IMG/VR virus record: IMGVR_UViG_2706794671_000007
From: a virus
Taxonomy: Duplodnaviria > Heunggongvirae > Uroviricota > Caudoviricetes
Reading direction: 5' to 3' (one strand)
Length of the DNA stretch: 6,610 nt
Part shown: positions 103-6,508 of the stretch, piece after piece
Position numbering within the stretch: position 1 is the stretch's first letter
Layout of the letters: every line of letters begins with the position of its first letter
Program-made: the position numbers and the translations under genes
Notes under the pieces: generated by a model
What the model was told of the DNA's origin: nothing
What the model saw: the letters and a program-made list of their open reading frames with translations, nothing else
The model's database searches: none

Positions 103-301
103 TCCATCACCGAAAAAAATTGGCTTTTACACCATTGGCGATAAAAGCATTTACCTGTATGACCTACGCCGCATGGATGAAATCATGGAGGCTCTTGATA
201 ATCGTTCGTCGATGGATTGGTGTGTTGCTGTTCATGATATGAATGCAGGGTTTGATGAAAAGATTTTGTTCCCCTCATCAGTTGAAAGCACTGCGGGTTA
301 A
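2..301 (+). CDS. Hypothetical protein, probably 5'-partial (frame open from the window edge; first ATG at 71; stop TAA 299..301)
   Basis: Frame 2 has no stop from position 2 to 298. The ATG at 71 has no Shine-Dalgarno upstream, so the gene likely starts outside the window. The stop lies 10 nt upstream of the next gene. No family recognised. Confidence 0.4.
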   Translation, partial: SGEYLPGSLQGKISSDGCLKKEQMVVSAIASTPHPSPKKIGFYTIGDKSIYLYDLRRMDEIMEALDNRSSMDWCVAVHDMNAGFDEKILFPSSVESTAG

Positions 302-311
302 GGAGTAACAC

Positions 312-479
312 ATGACCACTATTACCAAAGAACGTATTGAATTGTTCATTAAAAACCCGCTTGAAAACGGGCTTACCCGTGGTGAACAAATGGAACTGGC
401 ACGGATTGCGCTGGCATCGCTGGAAGCAGAGCCGGTTGTGTTCTGGTTTGAAAAATATCAAGAAGGGGCTACGGCATGA
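312..479 (+). CDS. Small hypothetical protein, 55 aa ([55 protein letters not shown]); paralogue of the downstream 114-aa protein
   Basis: Not in the supplied ORF track (under 60 aa). ATG 312 is preceded by a consensus SD, AGGAG at 301..305, with 6-nt spacing. The stop TGA 477..479 overlaps the ATG of the next gene (ATGA). Shares the N-terminus MTT(I/F)T(K/R)E and the motif IAL-x-SL-x-AEP with the 476..820 product. Confidence 0.55.
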
Positions 480-820
480 CGACTTTTACCAGAGAGCAGT
501 TAATAGCTCACGCAGAGGAGACTATTGAAGCACAGAGACTGTGCATACCGGGCACAATCGACCATGACATCATCCGCACATATAAGATGGATATTGCTGT
601 TCTGGAAATCGCACTGGTATCGCTGGCAGCAGAGCCAGCCGGTAAATTGCATGAATACAAACCAGTGGGATATCAGCGTCTGGTCGATGAGTTAACCATG
701 CTGGTAAAGCAGTTAACCTGGCAACTGAGGAAAGCGAAGCCAGACTGCAAATTACCGGATAAGGCGATGAGTTATCTGGAGCGGAACGGACTGATAAGCG
801 TGGAGGATATTTTACGATGA
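476..820 (+). CDS. Hypothetical phage protein, 114 aa; tandem paralogue of the 55-aa ORF
   Basis: ORF-track ORF. ATG overlaps the upstream stop (ATGA at 476..479). The N-terminus [10 protein letters not shown] and motif [12 protein letters not shown] parallel the upstream protein. Its stop TGA 818..820 overlaps the ATG 817..819 of a following mini-ORF. Confidence 0.65.
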
Positions 821-900
821 CCTGGCCTGAAGCATTAACAACGGTAGGAATTGCGATGGCGGTGGCGCTGGTGGTGTATTCGATTTGCCGCTGGGGATAA
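817..900 (+). CDS. Candidate 27-aa hydrophobic (single transmembrane-like) peptide [27 protein letters not shown]
   Basis: ATG 817 overlaps the upstream stop (ATGA). GGAGGA at 802..807 sits 9 nt upstream. The hydrophobic core [13 protein letters not shown] is followed by basic/aromatic CRWG; stop TAA 898..900. Not in the ORF track (too short). Confidence 0.4.
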
Positions 901-907
901 AAACGGT

Positions 908-935
908 TTGCGGGAAAAGGAGAGTTAAGTAGAAT
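908..935 (+). promoter_or_regulatory. Candidate sigma70 promoter for the hok mRNA (-35 TTGCGG 908..913, 16-nt spacer, -10 TAGAAT 930..935)
   Basis: Hexamers read directly. The predicted transcription start near 942 coincides with the GGGTGCTTGAGG element (942..953) that is complementary to the mRNA 3' region (see findings). Confidence 0.4.
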
Positions 936-981
936 TGCAGCGGGTGCTTGAGGCTATCTGTCTCAGGCATGAACACCAAAA

Positions 982-1063
982 GGCAGATAGAGAAAAGCCC
1001 CAGTTAACATTACGCGTCCGGCAAGACGCTTAACATTAATCTGAGGCTCAATCTATGAACGGC
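982..1063 (-). ncRNA. Candidate Sok-like antisense RNA of the hok locus (approximate ends); candidate promoter on the minus strand -35 TTGCCT (1098..1093), 17-nt spacer, -10 TAACCT (1075..1070)
   Basis: In hok/sok loci the antisense RNA is transcribed opposite to the mok leader and start region. A minus-strand promoter-like pair of hexamers lies inside the mok-like N-terminal extension and points toward the mok SD/start at 1043..1057. The 3' end is not defined by a clean terminator, so coordinates are approximate. Confidence 0.3.
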
Positions 1064-1111
1064 AAATCTAGGTTAGCCTCTTACGTGCCGAAAGGCAAGG
1101 AGAAGCAGGCT

Positions 1112-1267
1112 ATGAAGCAGCAAAAGGCGATGTTAATCGCCCTGATCGTCATCTGTTTAACCGTCATAGTGACGGCACTGGTAACGAGGAAAGACCTCTG
1201 CGAGGTACGAATTCGAACCGGCCAGACGGAGGTCGCTGTCTTCACAGCTTACGAACCTGAGGAGTAA
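1112..1267 (+). CDS. hokD: Hok-family type I toxin, 51 aa, matching HokD/RelF (MKQQKAMLIALIVICLTVIVTALVTRKDLCEVRIRTGQTEVAVFTAYEPEE); an in-frame upstream ATG at 1055 gives a 70-aa mok-like overlapping frame
   Basis: Internal Met of ORF-track ORF 1055..1267. AAGGAG at 1097..1102 sits 9 nt upstream of ATG 1112. The peptide has the Hok/Gef architecture (N-terminal transmembrane helix, conserved C-terminal region) and matches HokD of the K-12 Qin prophage as I recall it. The ATG at 1055 has its own SD (GAGG 1043..1046). Confidence 0.85.
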   Translation: MKQQKAMLIALIVICLTVIVTALVTRKDLCEVRIRTGQTEVAVFTAYEPEE

Positions 1268-1335
1268 GAGACCAGGCGGGGGAGAAATCCCTCGCCACCT
1301 CTGATGGGTCAGGCATCCTCAATGCACCCACACTT

Positions 1336-1362
1336 AACCCGCTTCGGCGGGTTTTTGTTTTT
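1336..1362 (+). terminator. Rho-independent terminator ending the hok mRNA
   Basis: Stem CCCGC (1338..1342), loop TTCG, stem GCGGG (1347..1351), followed by TTTTTGTTTTT. Confidence 0.75.
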
Positions 1363-1484
1363 ATTTTCAACGCGTTTGAAGTTTTAGATGGTGCCGGAAT
1401 AGAATCAAAAATACTTAAGTAGCGCGCAGGGAGAAGAGGGATGGACCCCGAACAGGGGAGTGCTATTTATCTGGAAGGATTCTG

Positions 1485-1844: not shown

Positions 1845-2903
1845 GTGCGGGTATTACTTCGACCTGTTCTGGTACCGGAACTCGGTCTGGTTATCGTTAA
1901 GCCAGGCCGTGAATCAATGTCAGCATTCCATAACGGCAGAATACTGGTGGAGCCGGAACCAAAAAGCATGCGTAATCTGCCGTCCGGGGTCGTTCCTGCC
2001 GCTCGCCAGCCGCTGGTGGAAGACAAAACATTGCTGCCGTTTTTCAGTAACGCACGGGTGATTCGTGCTGCTGGTGGTGCTGGTGCATTGTCTGACTGGC
2101 TGTTGCGCCATATTAAATCCTGCCAGTGGCCACACGGCGATTATCATCACAGCGAAACCGTCATTCACCGTTATGGTACCGGCGCAATGGTGTTGTGCTG
2201 GCACTGCGACAACCAGCTGCGTGACCAGACATCCGAATCACTCGAGCAACTTGCTCATCAAAACCTGTCAGCATGGATGATTGACGTCATCGGTCACGCA
2301 ATAAGCGGTACGCAGGAGCGTGAATTATCTCTGGCTGAATTATCCTGGTGGGCGGTCCGCAATCAGGTGGCGGACGCGCTACCGGAAGCGGTATTACGTC
2401 GTTCGCTGGGGTTGCGTGCGGAAAAAATTCGCTCTGTGTACAGTGAAAGCGACATCATACCGGGAGAGCAGACAGCCACCAGCATACTGAAGCAGCGCAC
2501 AAAAAATATTGCGTTACTGCCTCACGTCCACCAGCAACAGAACCCACCACAGGAAAAGACGGTGGTCAGCATTGCCGTTGATCCGGAGTCACCGGCTCAG
2601 TATCTCCAGCGCCAGAAATCACAACGGGAAGAGATGCCTGTATACACGCGCTGGGTAAAAACGCAGAAATGCATGACGTGTGGCAATCAGGCAGATGATC
2701 CGCATCACATCATTGGTCATGGACTGGGAGGGATGGGAACAAAGGCTGATGATTTGTTTGTTATTCCGTTATGCCGTAAATGCCGTAACGAACTACATGC
2801 CGGAGTAAAAGATTTTGAAGAGAAACACGGCAGTCAGCTGTTGTTGCTGATTCGTTTTTTAATGCACGCGAGAAATTCGGGTGTTCTGAAGTGGAAAGCA
2901 TAA
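1845..2903 (+). CDS. DUF968-like (YdfU-like) prophage protein, 352 aa, with a C-terminal HNH-like Cys/His motif; putative nuclease or zinc-binding protein
   Basis: ORF-track ORF with a GTG start at 1845 preceded by GGAGG (1836..1840); alternative in-frame ATGs at 1917 and 1967. C-terminal CMTCGN...HHIIGHGLGG...CRKCRNELH resembles an HNH/zinc-finger nuclease motif; a second cluster is HHSETVIHRYGTGAMVLCWHCDNQL. Stop TAA 2901..2903 directly abuts the rusA ATG. Confidence 0.7.
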   Translation: MRVLLRPVLVPELGLVIVKPGRESMSAFHNGRILVEPEPKSMRNLPSGVVPAARQPLVEDKTLLPFFSNARVIRAAGGAGALSDWLLRHIKSCQWPHGDYHHSETVIHRYGTGAMVLCWHCDNQLRDQTSESLEQLAHQNLSAWMIDVIGHAISGTQERELSLAELSWWAVRNQVADALPEAVLRRSLGLRAEKIRSVYSESDIIPGEQTATSILKQRTKNIALLPHVHQQQNPPQEKTVVSIAVDPESPAQYLQRQKSQREEMPVYTRWVKTQKCMTCGNQADDPHHIIGHGLGGMGTKADDLFVIPLCRKCRNELHAGVKDFEEKHGSQLLLLIRFLMHARNSGVLKWKA

Positions 2904-3284
2904 ATGACCGAGCGCATAGAATTTGTTTTACCTTACCCGCCGACGGTGAACACTTACTGGCGTCGTCGTGGCAGCACATATTTTGTATCAAAAGCCGGGG
3001 AGCGTTATCGCCGGGCAGTGGCGCTTATTGTTCGCCAGCAGCGGCTGAAATTAAGCCTGTCCGGAAGGTTGGCAATAAAAATTATTGCAGAACCACCGGA
3101 TAAGCGCCGCCGTGACCTGGACAATATTCTGAAAGCGCCGCTGGATGCGCTGACGCATGCGGGGTTGCTAATGGACGATGAGCAGTTTGATGAAATCAAT
3201 ATCGTTCGTGCTCAGCCAGTATCTGGTGGACGTCTGGGGGTGAAGATTTATCCCATAATGCTTGAAGGGCAGGTCAAAAAATGA
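2904..3284 (+). CDS. rusA: RusA-family Holliday junction resolvase (crossover junction endodeoxyribonuclease), 126 aa
   Basis: The translation carries the RusA catalytic-region signature PDKRRRDLDNILKAPLDALTHAGLLMDDEQF (acidic residues in RRRDLDN and MDDEQ), closely paralleling E. coli RusA. Size and nin-region position immediately upstream of Q fit. Confidence 0.9.
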   Translation: MTERIEFVLPYPPTVNTYWRRRGSTYFVSKAGERYRRAVALIVRQQRLKLSLSGRLAIKIIAEPPDKRRRDLDNILKAPLDALTHAGLLMDDEQFDEINIVRAQPVSGGRLGVKIYPIMLEGQVKK

Positions 3285-4102
3285 AACTGGAAGATTTACC
3301 GAAATACTACTCCCCAAAATCCCCCGGCCTGACTGATGCATCGGCCTCAACGTCGAAAGATGCGCTGAGTATCACTGATGTGATGGCCGCGCAGGGCATG
3401 ACACAGAATCGGGCTGAGATGGGGGTTTCTGCGTTCCTTGGGAAAATGGGCATTAGTATGAATGACAGAGAGCGGGCAACAGAATTGCTGACAGAATATG
3501 CACTCAGTCGGTGTGATCGCGTGGCGGCGTTAAGAAAACTCCCGGCAGAAATAAAACCGGCAGTGATGCGTATTATGGCTTCGTATGCGTTTGAAGATTA
3601 TGCCCGTAGCGCGGCGAGCAAAAAACAGTGCCCCTGCTGTCACGGAAAAAAATTTATTGAAAGCGAGGTTTTTACAAACAAGATCCAGTATCCGGATGGT
3701 AAGCCGCCGGTATGGGCAAAGTGTACGAAAGGTGTGTATCCGTCTTACTGGGAAGAATGGAAAAAAGTCAGGGAGGTGGTAAAAGTTGCCTGTCCGGAGT
3801 GTGGCGGAAAGGGTGAGGTTTCCACCGCCTGTAAGGATTGCCGTGGGCGTGGTGTCGCCATTCATCGTGAAGAGTCGGTAAAACGTGGTATGCCTGTTAT
3901 CAGAGACTGCCAGCGTTGTGGTGGTCGTGGCTATGAAAGACTACCATCAACGGAGGCATTTAATGCTATATGCGAGGTGACAAACCAGATAACACGCGCG
4001 TCATGGGAAAAAACAGTTAAGAAATTTTATGATGCGCTGGTGACCCGGTTTGATATTGAAGAAGCATGGGCTGAGCGGCAGTTAAAAAAGGTAACTAGGT
4101 AA
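3281..4102 (+). CDS. Late-gene antitermination protein Q, 273 aa, Cys-rich zinc-binding type
   Basis: ATG overlaps the rusA stop (ATGA 3281..3284). Multiple CxxC pairs (CPCC, CPEC, CKDC, CQRC). The position directly upstream of a PR'-like promoter plus short-leader terminator is the canonical Q / qut / tR' arrangement. Confidence 0.75.
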   Translation: MKLEDLPKYYSPKSPGLTDASASTSKDALSITDVMAAQGMTQNRAEMGVSAFLGKMGISMNDRERATELLTEYALSRCDRVAALRKLPAEIKPAVMRIMASYAFEDYARSAASKKQCPCCHGKKFIESEVFTNKIQYPDGKPPVWAKCTKGVYPSYWEEWKKVREVVKVACPECGGKGEVSTACKDCRGRGVAIHREESVKRGMPVIRDCQRCGGRGYERLPSTEAFNAICEVTNQITRASWEKTVKKFYDALVTRFDIEEAWAERQLKKVTR

Positions 4103-4674: not shown

Positions 4675-5733
4675 ATGCTTAATACTGTAAAAATATCCAG
4701 TTGTGAGTTAATCAACGCCGACTGCCTGGAATTTATCCGGTCGTTACCCGAAAATTCTGTTGACCTGATAGTCACGGACCCGCCGTACTTTAAAGTGAAG
4801 CCTGAGGGCTGGGATAACCAGTGGAAGGGCGACGATGATTACCTGAAGTGGCTGGACCAGTGTCTGGCGCAGTTCTGGCGGGTGCTGAAACCTGCCGGAA
4901 GTCTTTACCTGTTCTGTGGTCATCGCCTGGCATCTGATATCGAAATCATGATGCGTGAACGCTTCAGTGTGCTGAACCATATTATCTGGGCGAAGCCGTC
5001 CGGACGCTGGAACGGATGCAACAAGGAAAGCCTGCGGGCGTATTTCCCCGCCACAGAGCGCATTCTGTTCGCGGAACATTATCAGGGGCCGTATCGTCCG
5101 AAAGATGCCGGGTATGCGGCGAAGGGCAGTGCACTGAAACAGCATGTGATGGCCCCGCTGATTTCTTACTTTCGTGATGCGCGAGCTGCCCTGGGGATAA
5201 CGGCAAAACAGATTGCAGATGCCACAGGAAAGAAAAACATGGTGTCGCACTGGTTCAGTGCCGGTCAGTGGCAGTTGCCGAATGAAAGCGATTATCTGAA
5301 ATTACAGGCGCTGTTTGCCCGGGTGGCAGAAGAGAAGCATCGGCGTGGTGAACTGGAAAAGCTCCACCACCAGCTGGTGGATACGTATACCTCACTGAAC
5401 CGGCAGTATGCGGAGCTGCTGAGTGAATATAAACATCTGCGGCGGTATTTTGGCGTGACGGTGCAGGTGCCGTATACCGATGTGTGGACGCATAAACCGG
5501 TGCAGTTCTATCCCGGGAAACATCCGTGCGAAAAACCGGCAGAAATGCTGCAGCAGATAATCAGCGCTAGCAGTCGTCCGGGTGACCTGATTGCAGATTT
5601 TTTCATGGGGTTGGGTTCGACAGTGAAAGCGGCACTGGCGCTCGGGCGTCGTGCAATTGGCGTTGAGCTGGAGACTGAACGTTTTGAGCAGACGGTTCGG
5701 GAAGTACAGGATTTAGTCAGCCAGAACGGATGA
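4675..5733 (+). CDS. Phage-encoded DNA N6-adenine methyltransferase, beta class (motif IV DPPY N-terminal, motif I FxGxG C-terminal), 352 aa; no cognate restriction enzyme visible (orphan)
   Basis: LIVTDPPYF at residues about 31..39 (catalytic motif IV typical of amino-methyltransferases) and DFFMGLGST near residue 300 (AdoMet-binding motif I). The permuted order IV then I defines the beta group. A central insert of about 250 aa is a plausible target-recognition domain. Confidence 0.85.
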   Translation: MLNTVKISSCELINADCLEFIRSLPENSVDLIVTDPPYFKVKPEGWDNQWKGDDDYLKWLDQCLAQFWRVLKPAGSLYLFCGHRLASDIEIMMRERFSVLNHIIWAKPSGRWNGCNKESLRAYFPATERILFAEHYQGPYRPKDAGYAAKGSALKQHVMAPLISYFRDARAALGITAKQIADATGKKNMVSHWFSAGQWQLPNESDYLKLQALFARVAEEKHRRGELEKLHHQLVDTYTSLNRQYAELLSEYKHLRRYFGVTVQVPYTDVWTHKPVQFYPGKHPCEKPAEMLQQIISASSRPGDLIADFFMGLGSTVKAALALGRRAIGVELETERFEQTVREVQDLVSQNG

Positions 5734-5773: not shown

Positions 5774-5849
5774 GGCCCTTTAGCTCAGTGGTGAGAGCGA
5801 GCGACTCATAATCGCCAGGTCGCTGGTTCAAATCCAGCAAGGGCCACCA
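5774..5849 (+). tRNA. tRNA with anticodon CAT, most likely tRNA-Ile2 (lysidine type, ileX/ileZ-like) rather than tRNA-Met; 76 nt including CCA
   Basis: Cloverleaf folded by hand: acceptor GGCCCTT / AAGGGCC, D-arm GCTC-AGTGGTGA-GAGC, anticodon arm AGCGA-CTCATAA-TCGCC (CAT at positions 34..36), T-arm GCTGG-TTCAAAT-CCAGC, discriminator A plus CCA. Closely resembles E. coli ileX as I recall it. Confidence 0.85.
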
Positions 5850-5890: not shown

Positions 5891-6176
5891 NNNNNNNNNN
5901 NNNNNNNNNNNNNNNNNNNNNNNNNNNNNNNNNNNNNNNNNNNNNNNNNNNNNNNNNNNNNNNNNNNNNNNNNNNNNNNNNNNNNNNNNNNNNNNNNNNN
6001 NNNNNNNNNNNNNNNNNNNNNNNNNNNNNNNNNNNNNNNNNNNNNNNNNNNNNNNNNNNNNNNNNNNNNNNNNNNNNNNNNNNNNNNNNNNNNNNNNNNN
6101 NNNNNNNNNNNNNNNNNNNNNNNNNNNNNNNNNNNNNNNNNNNNNNNNNNNNNNNNNNNNNNNNNNNNNNNNNNNN
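5891..6176. other. Scaffold gap: 286 consecutive N
   Basis: Unbroken run of n characters. Any ORF crossing it is an artefact and the true content and length are unknown. Confidence 0.99.
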
Positions 6177-6300
6177 GAATCCCCCTGTGCGGAGGGGCAA
6201 TCAGCGAGTAGGTATATGGGATAATCGCGGATTCAGGTGCTGGTACTGAATTCACCGGGAGGCACCCGGCATCATGCAATGGCACATAGCGCCACTCTCC

Positions 6301-6324
6301 AGCCCTCTCCGGAGGGGCTTTTCT
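6301..6324 (+). terminator. Candidate rho-independent terminator
   Basis: Stem CCCTC (6303..6307), loop TCCG, stem GAGGG (6312..6316), followed by GCTTTTCT. Confidence 0.45.
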
Positions 6325-6508
6325 GTGCCGGATACATCACAGTTTCTGGAACCTTAGGTACTACAGTATCAGTCAGGGTGCTATATTTTCAGATGTGATG
6401 AAAGCCTGTCAGCAGGCAGGGCGTATCGGAAATGACCCAGTAGAGAAAACGTTGACTCAGATACCGGTGCTGAGTTACCGGGAAACCGGCATCACATGAC
6501 CGCTATCC

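Follow-up and report, generated by a model that had tools for sequence, protein, structure and literature searches.

Three overlapping open reading frames (ORFs) of 55, 114 and 27 amino acids lie directly upstream of a hok gene, at positions 312–900 of a 6,610-nucleotide Caudoviricetes sequence (IMG/VR record IMGVR_UViG_2706794671_000007; the whole stretch is referred to below as the window). We found that this trio is not a co-inherited unit; each of its parts recombines separately. The two larger ORFs encode hypothetical proteins that databases already list and that belong to a known mosaic kind; the smallest, an 84-bp ORF of 27 codons, is an uncharacterised and widespread microprotein family. 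We propose that the region is the far end of an early accessory array of the ead/Ea22/Eaa/DUF551 type in a Qin/Rac-like lambdoid prophage, assembled from independently recombining blocks, and that the 27-codon ORF would be a genuine, separately mobile gene whose product enters the inner membrane. We give this account as a whole, mosaic blocks together with a mobile membrane microprotein, a probability of about 0.6. Its structural and evolutionary part is very probably correct, and the specific mode of action suggested below for the peptide, by analogy with other small proteins, is tentative.

The three ORFs are joined by ATGA stop/start overlaps at positions 476–479 and 817–820, and each has its own Shine-Dalgarno (SD)-like sequence (Table 1). 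The coordinates and SD-like sequences read as had been claimed in the original prediction, which was made from the DNA sequence alone, and the overlaps suggest that translation of the three ORFs is coupled, as it also proposed. Conservation of all three is well beyond chance. The exact 55- and 114-residue sequences are each found on at least 1000 contigs and are held in RefSeq as WP_000207997.1 and WP_000206826.1, both labelled hypothetical. These two products had been described as tandem paralogues. They do share an N-terminus (MTTITKERI and MTTFTREQL, respectively) and the motif IAL(A/V)SL(E/A)AEP, pairwise BLASTP aligns them with 33% identity over 54 residues (E=1e-5), and in PHROGs the profiles phrog_660, phrog_60, phrog_3323 and phrog_5117 each match both proteins. 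However, what they have in common is only a portable N-module of about 50 residues that also heads many Eaa/DUF551-type proteins, and the description as paralogues holds for this module alone.

To place the 114-residue protein in its family, relatives were collected by a search of 5.8 billion proteins and the retrieved sequences were aligned (alignment A1). Family members consist of the N-module, a variable middle and a nearly invariant C-module. The N-module has the consensus start M-(T/A)-T-x-T-K-E and stands at the head of many mosaic Eaa/DUF551-type prophage proteins; the middle is absent, a DUF551 domain, or one of several other bodies. By this alignment, the 114-residue protein is the minimal form, an N-module followed by the nearly invariant C-module of about 45 residues. 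Its N-module is identical to the N-terminus of a relative (P0066) that carries Pfam DUF551 (PF04448), and yet neither the 55- nor the 114-residue protein matched any Pfam or NCBIfam model at E<=1, including those for Ead_Ea22, ead/Ea22-like and DUF551, so the two ORFs share a module with DUF551 proteins and not the domain itself. In the AlphaFold2 (AF2) model of the 114-residue protein, a helical hairpin at residues 6–26/30–51 (pLDDT, the predicted local confidence, ~90) is followed by helices at 64–87, 95–103 and 109–113, which would make the protein a helical-hairpin module joined to a helical C-terminal module, with DUF551 or other domains inserted between the two in relatives. The model of the 55-residue protein has helices at 6–14 and 23–39 (pLDDT 70) and a disordered tail. 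Foldseek of the AF2 model against PDB returned generic helical hairpins alone (E>0.4), and PDB sequence searches gave no match for the products. The matching PHROGs families, phrog_660 for the 114-residue protein (E=8.2e-43) and phrog_3323 (E=1.3e-19) and phrog_60 (4.3e-18) for the 55-residue protein, are all of unknown function; UniRef names the latter 'Eaa protein', and we found no literature on the function of Eaa proteins.

This organisation resembles that of Ea22-type proteins, which are mosaics that combine a short segment at the N-terminus with a coiled coil and with exchangeable domains, such as DUF551, at the C-terminus (PMC10834534), and for which a pro-lysogenic effect has been reported (PMC10834534; PMC7093339). 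As in the Ea22/Ead/Eaa/DUF551 mosaics, a short N-terminal segment is combined with exchangeable C-terminal domains, the N-module of the window being found on the bodies of P0066 and of the Eaa protein P0090, and genes for ead/Ea22-like, DUF551 and DUF7167 proteins lie directly upstream in relatives. The ORFs of the window differ in having no long coiled coil and neither a DUF551 nor a lambda-type C-terminal domain. In near-identical E. coli prophages, the upstream genes are a repressor/Cro pair, YdaT, replication genes and DUF977, and then ead/Ea22-like, DUF7167 and small hypothetical genes, which puts the trio last in the accessory array behind the replication genes of a Qin/Rac-like lambdoid prophage.

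The 55-residue ORF is an N-module alone. Its residues 1–41 are nearly identical to the N-terminus of 197-residue Eaa proteins such as P0090, and its last 15 codons recur at the 3' end of a gene for an HNH endonuclease, both in phage ArgO145 and in 19 of 79 IMG/VR relatives. The gene that precedes the 114-residue gene is of the 55-residue type in 60 of these 79 relatives and of the HNH type in the other 19, with the same tail in both. This 15-codon tail holds the SD of the 114-residue gene and always accompanies that gene. In addition, a 101-residue hybrid (P0031) joins the head of the 55-residue protein to the body of the 114-residue protein exactly at the repeated IALASL motif. Among 5426 complete E. 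coli genomes, the full trio (>=80% coverage) was found in 409 and pieces of it in 1823, with breakpoints near window positions 429–436, 722 and 817. The 55-residue ORF would thus be a second copy of the N-module alone, most likely formed when recombination at the common motif joined the head of an Eaa-type gene to the 15-codon tail, and it is probably what recombination has left of a longer Eaa-type gene.

Another possibility, which we consider doubtful, is that the 55-residue ORF is a functional free N-module that assembles with the N-module proteins encoded by its own prophage (the 114-residue, Eaa and DUF551 proteins) and tunes their oligomeric state. The N-terminal and coiled-coil parts of Ea22 mediate its oligomerisation (PMC10834534), the N-module is predicted to form a helical hairpin, and the exact 55-residue sequence is abundant, as noted above. 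Among near-identical copies, its codon changes comprise 9 synonymous and 8 non-synonymous ones, and none of 73 full-length copies is disrupted; for the 114-residue ORF the counts are 20 and 17, again with no disrupted copy. These crude counts are compatible with purifying selection on both ORFs and have low power, in the case of the 55-residue ORF because most copies are nearly identical. Moreover, RefSeq calls similar short N-module pieces pseudogene fragments, the tail is borrowed from another gene and predicted to be disordered, the P0031-type hybrid has lost the ORF at no evident cost, and a quarter of relatives have the HNH gene in its place. Rare database variants in which small indels fuse the 55- and 114-residue ORFs (167–168 residues) or the 114- and 27-residue ORFs (143 residues; the three variants are P0001, P0002 and P0011) are probably mutations or assembly errors. 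Programmed −1 frameshifting onto the 27-residue peptide was rejected, as there is no slippery heptamer before the stop codon in either main context. One locus with an N-module only (H258) is an IS3-truncated pseudogene and was uninformative.

The 27-codon ORF has a distribution of its own. Of the 5426 complete E. coli genomes, 1634 carry it, and its 3110 occurrences there are almost all full length; it was also found in 196 plasmids and 95 phage records. In Shiga toxin (Stx) phage 933W, as in some 80 further Stx phage records, the DNA matches the window from exactly the ATG of this ORF onwards; in 933W it is preceded by L0139, which likewise ends in ATGA, and in other E. coli prophages by a DUF551 protein gene, again with ATGA. 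At the opposite end, strain GN05652 has DUF4222-xis-int after the trio in place of hok, and homology stops exactly at the stop codon of the 27-codon ORF. The ORF lies ahead of xis/int in VT1-Sakai and BP-4795, and it is carried by the virulent Vequintavirinae phage Av-05. In plasmids of ~95–100 kb that are predicted to be non-mobilizable and are probably phage-plasmids, nothing but the 84 bp is shared with the window, at 83% identity, and the gene in front of it is 'eaa' or a DUF551 gene. The upstream partners of the ORF include DUF551, Eaa, L0139-type and pyrophosphohydrolase genes.

A scan of IMG/VR anchored on codons 1–7 alone gave 126 usable copies. In 110 of them the reading frame is intact and has exactly 27 codons. 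The genes ahead of these copies end in C-termini of at least six unrelated kinds, and more than 12 different contexts were seen downstream, about a third of the copies having hok there. In nearly every context, an SD of the GGAGG type stands before the ORF. Absence of the ORF from close relatives had been named as a ground for refuting the original prediction, and this check does not refute it, the ORF being intact in 72 of the 79 close relatives of the 114-residue gene; the C-module gene also occurs without it, and K-12 Qin and CPS-53 (yfdS/DUF551 region) lack it. Among GTDB species representatives, a protein-level pattern restricted the peptide to Escherichia and Shigella, with possible distant relatives in Izhakiella and in a metagenome-assembled genome of Pseudobdellovibrionaceae. 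In Izhakiella australiensis (L216, 7647..7813) there are two tandem small hydrophobic ORFs, MSMDWPEAFMIVGVAFALAWMVRGLICTGPE and MHWPGVIANLVFLAGLLVMIWLVCDRFKY, both starting with M(x)WP, the first of which is ATGA-coupled to an 83-residue helix-turn-helix gene; they may be distant relatives of the family outside Escherichia. Annotation of the ORF is sparse. It is absent from RefSeq annotation in all four carrier E. coli genomes inspected, the NCBI entry of the exact peptide reads 'putative prophage protein' (E. coli 042 and others), and a version extended N-terminally to 45 residues is WP_423274943.1.

Variation in individual lineages was also observed. In Shigella phage POCJ13 (L011, 1501–1581) and 6–7 IMG/VR copies, codon 3 is an amber codon (TGG to TAG); the next 24 codons are open and very hydrophobic (Kyte-Doolittle 3.08), and the amber codon could reflect recent inactivation, or be bypassed by suppression or an alternative start. 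In about ten E. coli genomes (L007, NZ_CP029420, 2060–2619), a ~330-bp AT-rich insert replaces the ORF between the C-module gene and hokD. This insert contains an unannotated ORF (2142..2360, ~59 residues from an internal ATG) with two hydrophobic stretches, which makes it another small membrane-protein candidate in the slot of the 27-residue ORF. In phage ArgO145 (L133, 2194..3616), the HNH endonuclease gene is followed by the 114- and 27-residue ORFs, and a toxin/antitoxin pair on the opposite strand replaces hok downstream.

The trio had been suggested, as speculation, to form one addiction or defence cassette in the slot that holds relBE in K-12, of the toxin-antitoxin (TA) or abortive-infection type, in which the 27-residue peptide would be a membrane toxin and the larger protein or proteins its antidote. 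The premise about synteny is correct: the gene order in K-12 Qin is relB-relE-hokD-rem-ydfU-ydfT, with relBE directly upstream of hokD, and the backbone hok - DUF968/ydfU - Q is shared with the window. The start/stop overlaps, the syntenic position, the TA pairs that adjoin this spot in other phages such as ArgO145, and the frequent presence of the 27-residue ORF behind relatives of the 114-residue gene would all suit such a cassette. However, its parts are not co-conserved across prophages, given that the 27-residue ORF is also coupled to genes of other kinds (DUF551, Eaa, L0139-type, pyrophosphohydrolase and others), some copies of the C-module gene lack it, the HNH gene can replace the 55-residue ORF, and hok adjoins the 27-residue ORF in only about a third of sampled copies. 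Nor did family searches of the three peptides point to TA, to defence or to a known fold: at E<=1 in Pfam, NCBIfam and PADLOC none of them matches a toxin or antitoxin family, the only hits being weak and non-specific ones to transmembrane segments, there is no homology to RelB or RelE, and no DNA-binding antitoxin-like domain was found, the predicted folds being only helical hairpins. A consensus scan, which cannot exclude a promoter, found no promoter-like site before position 312 and thus none of the trio's own, autoregulated as for relBE or otherwise. A single cassette of this kind is barely credible on these results.

We next asked whether the 27-codon ORF is coding. Over codons 8–27, which the retrieval anchor left unconstrained, the ratio of non-synonymous to synonymous substitution rates (dN/dS) is 0.38, as compared with 0.68 and 2.1 in the other forward frames, and entropy falls from 0.76 at codon position 3 through 0.48 at position 1 to 0.26 at position 2, the most conserved of the three. 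Seven diverged lineages (up to 38% nucleotide divergence) have all kept an open frame, the hydrophobic core and residues G11, A15, A17 and Y21-S-I-C-R-W26. Lineages of 25–38% divergence have kept exactly 27 codons, an SD, the hydrophobic core and the ends MxWPEA and YSICRW. When substitutions were simulated at random, the per-lineage probability of an open frame with equal or greater hydrophobicity was 0.0000–0.15, and amino-acid changes were far below expectation in two lineages (P=0.0014 each). With its start, stop and SD conserved and a substitution pattern of coding type, the ORF has the sequence properties of a protein-coding gene.

Several observations weigh against our account. The antisense frame that shares the wobble positions has a dN/dS of 0.34, as low as that of the sense frame, so the coding call rests on the conservation of start, stop and SD, the mosaic boundaries and the hydrophobicity. 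Among near-identical copies there are 18 synonymous and 55 non-synonymous distinct codon changes, indicating only moderate purifying selection on the core of the peptide, and ~9–13% of copies carry a frameshift or a stop codon. We found no paper containing the peptide sequence and no match in the supplements of the Sakai Ribo-seq paper. Binding of the peptide to a partner, discussed below, enters the account by analogy alone, and the codon counts and intactness of the 55-residue ORF would suit a functional protein rather than a remnant. As to the antisense frame, ORFs on that strand over the 84-bp block have no consistent start, end or openness across contexts, and an antisense ORF was rejected on these grounds as the explanation of the conservation in spite of its equally low dN/dS. 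The low antisense value is a geometric artefact, and dN/dS should be taken with caution when it stands alone on short, GC-rich, hydrophobic ORFs. Two minus-strand frames are open over 817..900 in many contexts.

If the ORF were incidental, the 84-bp block would be a conserved non-coding element, such as a hok promoter or upstream control region, a recombination linker or a structured RNA. Lambdoid mosaics do have short conserved sequences at their junctions, about a third of the sampled copies of the block lie next to hok, and both the moderate selection on core residues and the low antisense dN/dS are compatible with such an element. We nevertheless consider it very unlikely. In contexts that lack hok, the block is still present and its limits coincide with the start and stop codons, and the hok promoter and leader begin only after position 900, which led us to reject the hok promoter as the explanation. 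A structured RNA was likewise rejected, as no RNA structure signal was found over the ORF (fold z=+0.88). Finally, an incidental ORF would not be expected to keep its length, SD, hydrophobic core and both ends in lineages of 25–38% divergence, and the competing antisense ORFs have no conserved start or end.

The description of the third product as membrane-like was borne out by its composition. A 19-residue window of the peptide averages 2.16 on the Kyte-Doolittle scale, above the usual threshold for transmembrane segments of 1.6, so it qualifies as having one membrane-spanning stretch, and this hydrophobicity is kept in all diverged lineages. Pfam, NCBIfam and PADLOC gave no specific match to it; the weak matches to DUF883_C (E=0.029) and KdpF (E=0.12) fall short of the cut-off and seem to reflect a general resemblance among transmembrane segments. 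PHROGs contains no real family for the ORF, also when N-extended versions and variants were used (best E ~0.007–0.03), and a 30-residue window query against 1.84 billion representatives returned 21 short variants and no distant or larger relatives. A cluster look-up grouped the peptide with DUF551 proteins, raising the possibility that it is a C-terminal transmembrane tail of such proteins; those proteins do not contain the peptide, and this candidate was discarded.

TisB, DinQ, Ibs and ShoB are comparable to the peptide in size and hydrophobicity, the 27-residue ORF often adjoins hok, and in one lineage another small hydrophobic ORF occupies its slot, which together would suit a type I toxin-like or holin-like peptide that depolarises or permeabilises the inner membrane when the early operon turns on. 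However, the peptide matches neither HOK_GEF nor any other toxin family, no antisense RNA or dedicated control element accompanies it (Rfam finds nothing over 817–900), and the ORF is coupled to ordinary early genes, including in a virulent phage, in which early self-killing would be pointless. In addition, the GxxxA face and both ends of the peptide are conserved, as would fit specific packing. We therefore regard a membrane-damaging toxin as unlikely. As with Hok/Gef, TisB, DinQ and Ibs, the product is predicted to be a small hydrophobic inner-membrane peptide, and a real hok/sok locus adjoins it in the window. In contrast to the Hok/Gef type I toxins, it has no leader fold and no mok-like coupling ORF, the Rfam sok/hok model matching only downstream of it, and it appears to belong to an operon through its ATGA overlap and is without hok in most contexts.

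We favour instead a membrane microprotein that acts through a partner. As no promoter-like site of its own was found, the 27-codon ORF would be transcribed with the early operon, and its own SD together with its overlap with the stop codon of whichever gene precedes it suggests that it is translated from early transcripts by termination-reinitiation coupling at the ATGA. The product would insert into the inner membrane as a single helix with its N-terminus out and its C-terminus in: by the positive-inside rule, the acidic MxWPE end should be periplasmic and the end containing R25, RW(G), cytoplasmic. MgrB, AcrZ, KdpF and similar small proteins act by binding larger membrane proteins. By analogy, the 27-residue product may bind a larger host or phage membrane protein through its small-residue face, G11xxxA15xA17. 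More specifically, it might target a particular host inner-membrane protein, for instance to block superinfection, change transport or tune the choice between lysis and lysogeny, and would then found a new family of phage-encoded modulators of membrane proteins, missed by standard annotation; we see this as an open possibility, well short of probable. With MgrB, AcrZ, KdpF, MgtS and CydX, which as a class are typically overlooked by annotation, the peptide has in common its size, a single hydrophobic helix, short charged ends and a small-residue face. It differs from them in having no sequence kinship (the KdpF match is below cut-off) and in being encoded by a phage-borne, mobile gene. T4 Imm, HK97 gp15 and P22 SieA offer a further parallel, in that the product would be expressed early, looks non-essential, is predicted to be embedded in the membrane and comes from a moron-rich region, whereas the peptide is much shorter than these proteins and has no sequence similarity to them.

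These results remove a tempting reading of the region, since a new addiction or defence cassette in place of relBE is unsupported, and present part of a lambdoid prophage as an assembly of recombining sub-gene modules. The by-product is a conserved and mostly unannotated gene for a predicted membrane peptide, present in Stx phages and in ~30% of E. coli genomes; if the peptide does modulate a host membrane protein, a widespread phage effector would join the catalogue of small proteins. Tens of thousands of conserved small-ORF families have been reported in enterobacteria (PMC11188072), and with conserved hydrophobic ones so numerous a specialist would find the gene useful and not surprising. 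Overall, the region is ordinary phage mosaicism plus one modestly interesting microprotein.

Beyond the trio, the window contains the features listed in Table 1.

Table 1. Features of the window, with the three ORFs and their ribosome-binding signals first.
Feature	Position	Strand	Basis or remarks
Shine-Dalgarno-like AAGGAG	300..305	+	6 nt ahead of ATG 312 of the 55-residue ORF; sequence read
55-residue ORF	312..479	+	N-module alone (residues 1–41) plus 14-residue tail
Shine-Dalgarno-like GAAGGGG	462..468	+	7 nt ahead of ATG 476 of the 114-residue ORF; within tail of the 55-residue ORF; sequence read
114-residue ORF	476..820	+	N-module residues 1–54 (nt 476–637), short linker, C-module residues 72–114 (nt 689–817)
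Shine-Dalgarno GGAGG	802..806	+	10 nt ahead of ATG 817 of the 27-residue ORF; sequence read
27-codon ORF, predicted hydrophobic single-pass microprotein	817..900	+	Autonomous mosaic unit
hok/mok/sok locus, outside the trio	908..1370	+	Rfam, Pfam, terminator scan
Putative hok promoter	~908–935	+	Position inferred from sequence
hok mRNA leader	from ~942	+	Rfam RF01794 (sok/hok leader) match 942..1117 from model position 1, 112 bits
mok	1055..1267	+	Pfam HOK_GEF E=3e-23 on this ORF
hok	1112..1267	+	
Terminator-like site	1336–1353	+	Terminator scan
DUF968/YdfU	1845..2903		Downstream of hok
RusA	2904..3284		
Q antiterminator	3281..4102		
DNA methyltransferase	4675..5733		
tRNA-Met(CAT)	5774..5849		

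Unlike K-12 hokD, which lies behind relBE, the hok copy of the window apparently has a promoter of its own. Upstream of the trio, an ORF of 76 residues at 71..301 matches phrog_1714 (E=5e-37); its RefSeq homologues have 82–87 residues and variable N-termini, and all related prophages that were inspected have a homologue ahead of the N-module gene. The window matches these prophages only from about position 103 onwards. At the other end, positions 5891–6176 are a run of N (masked sequence), and an Rfam STnc100 match at 6148..6330 lies partly within it.

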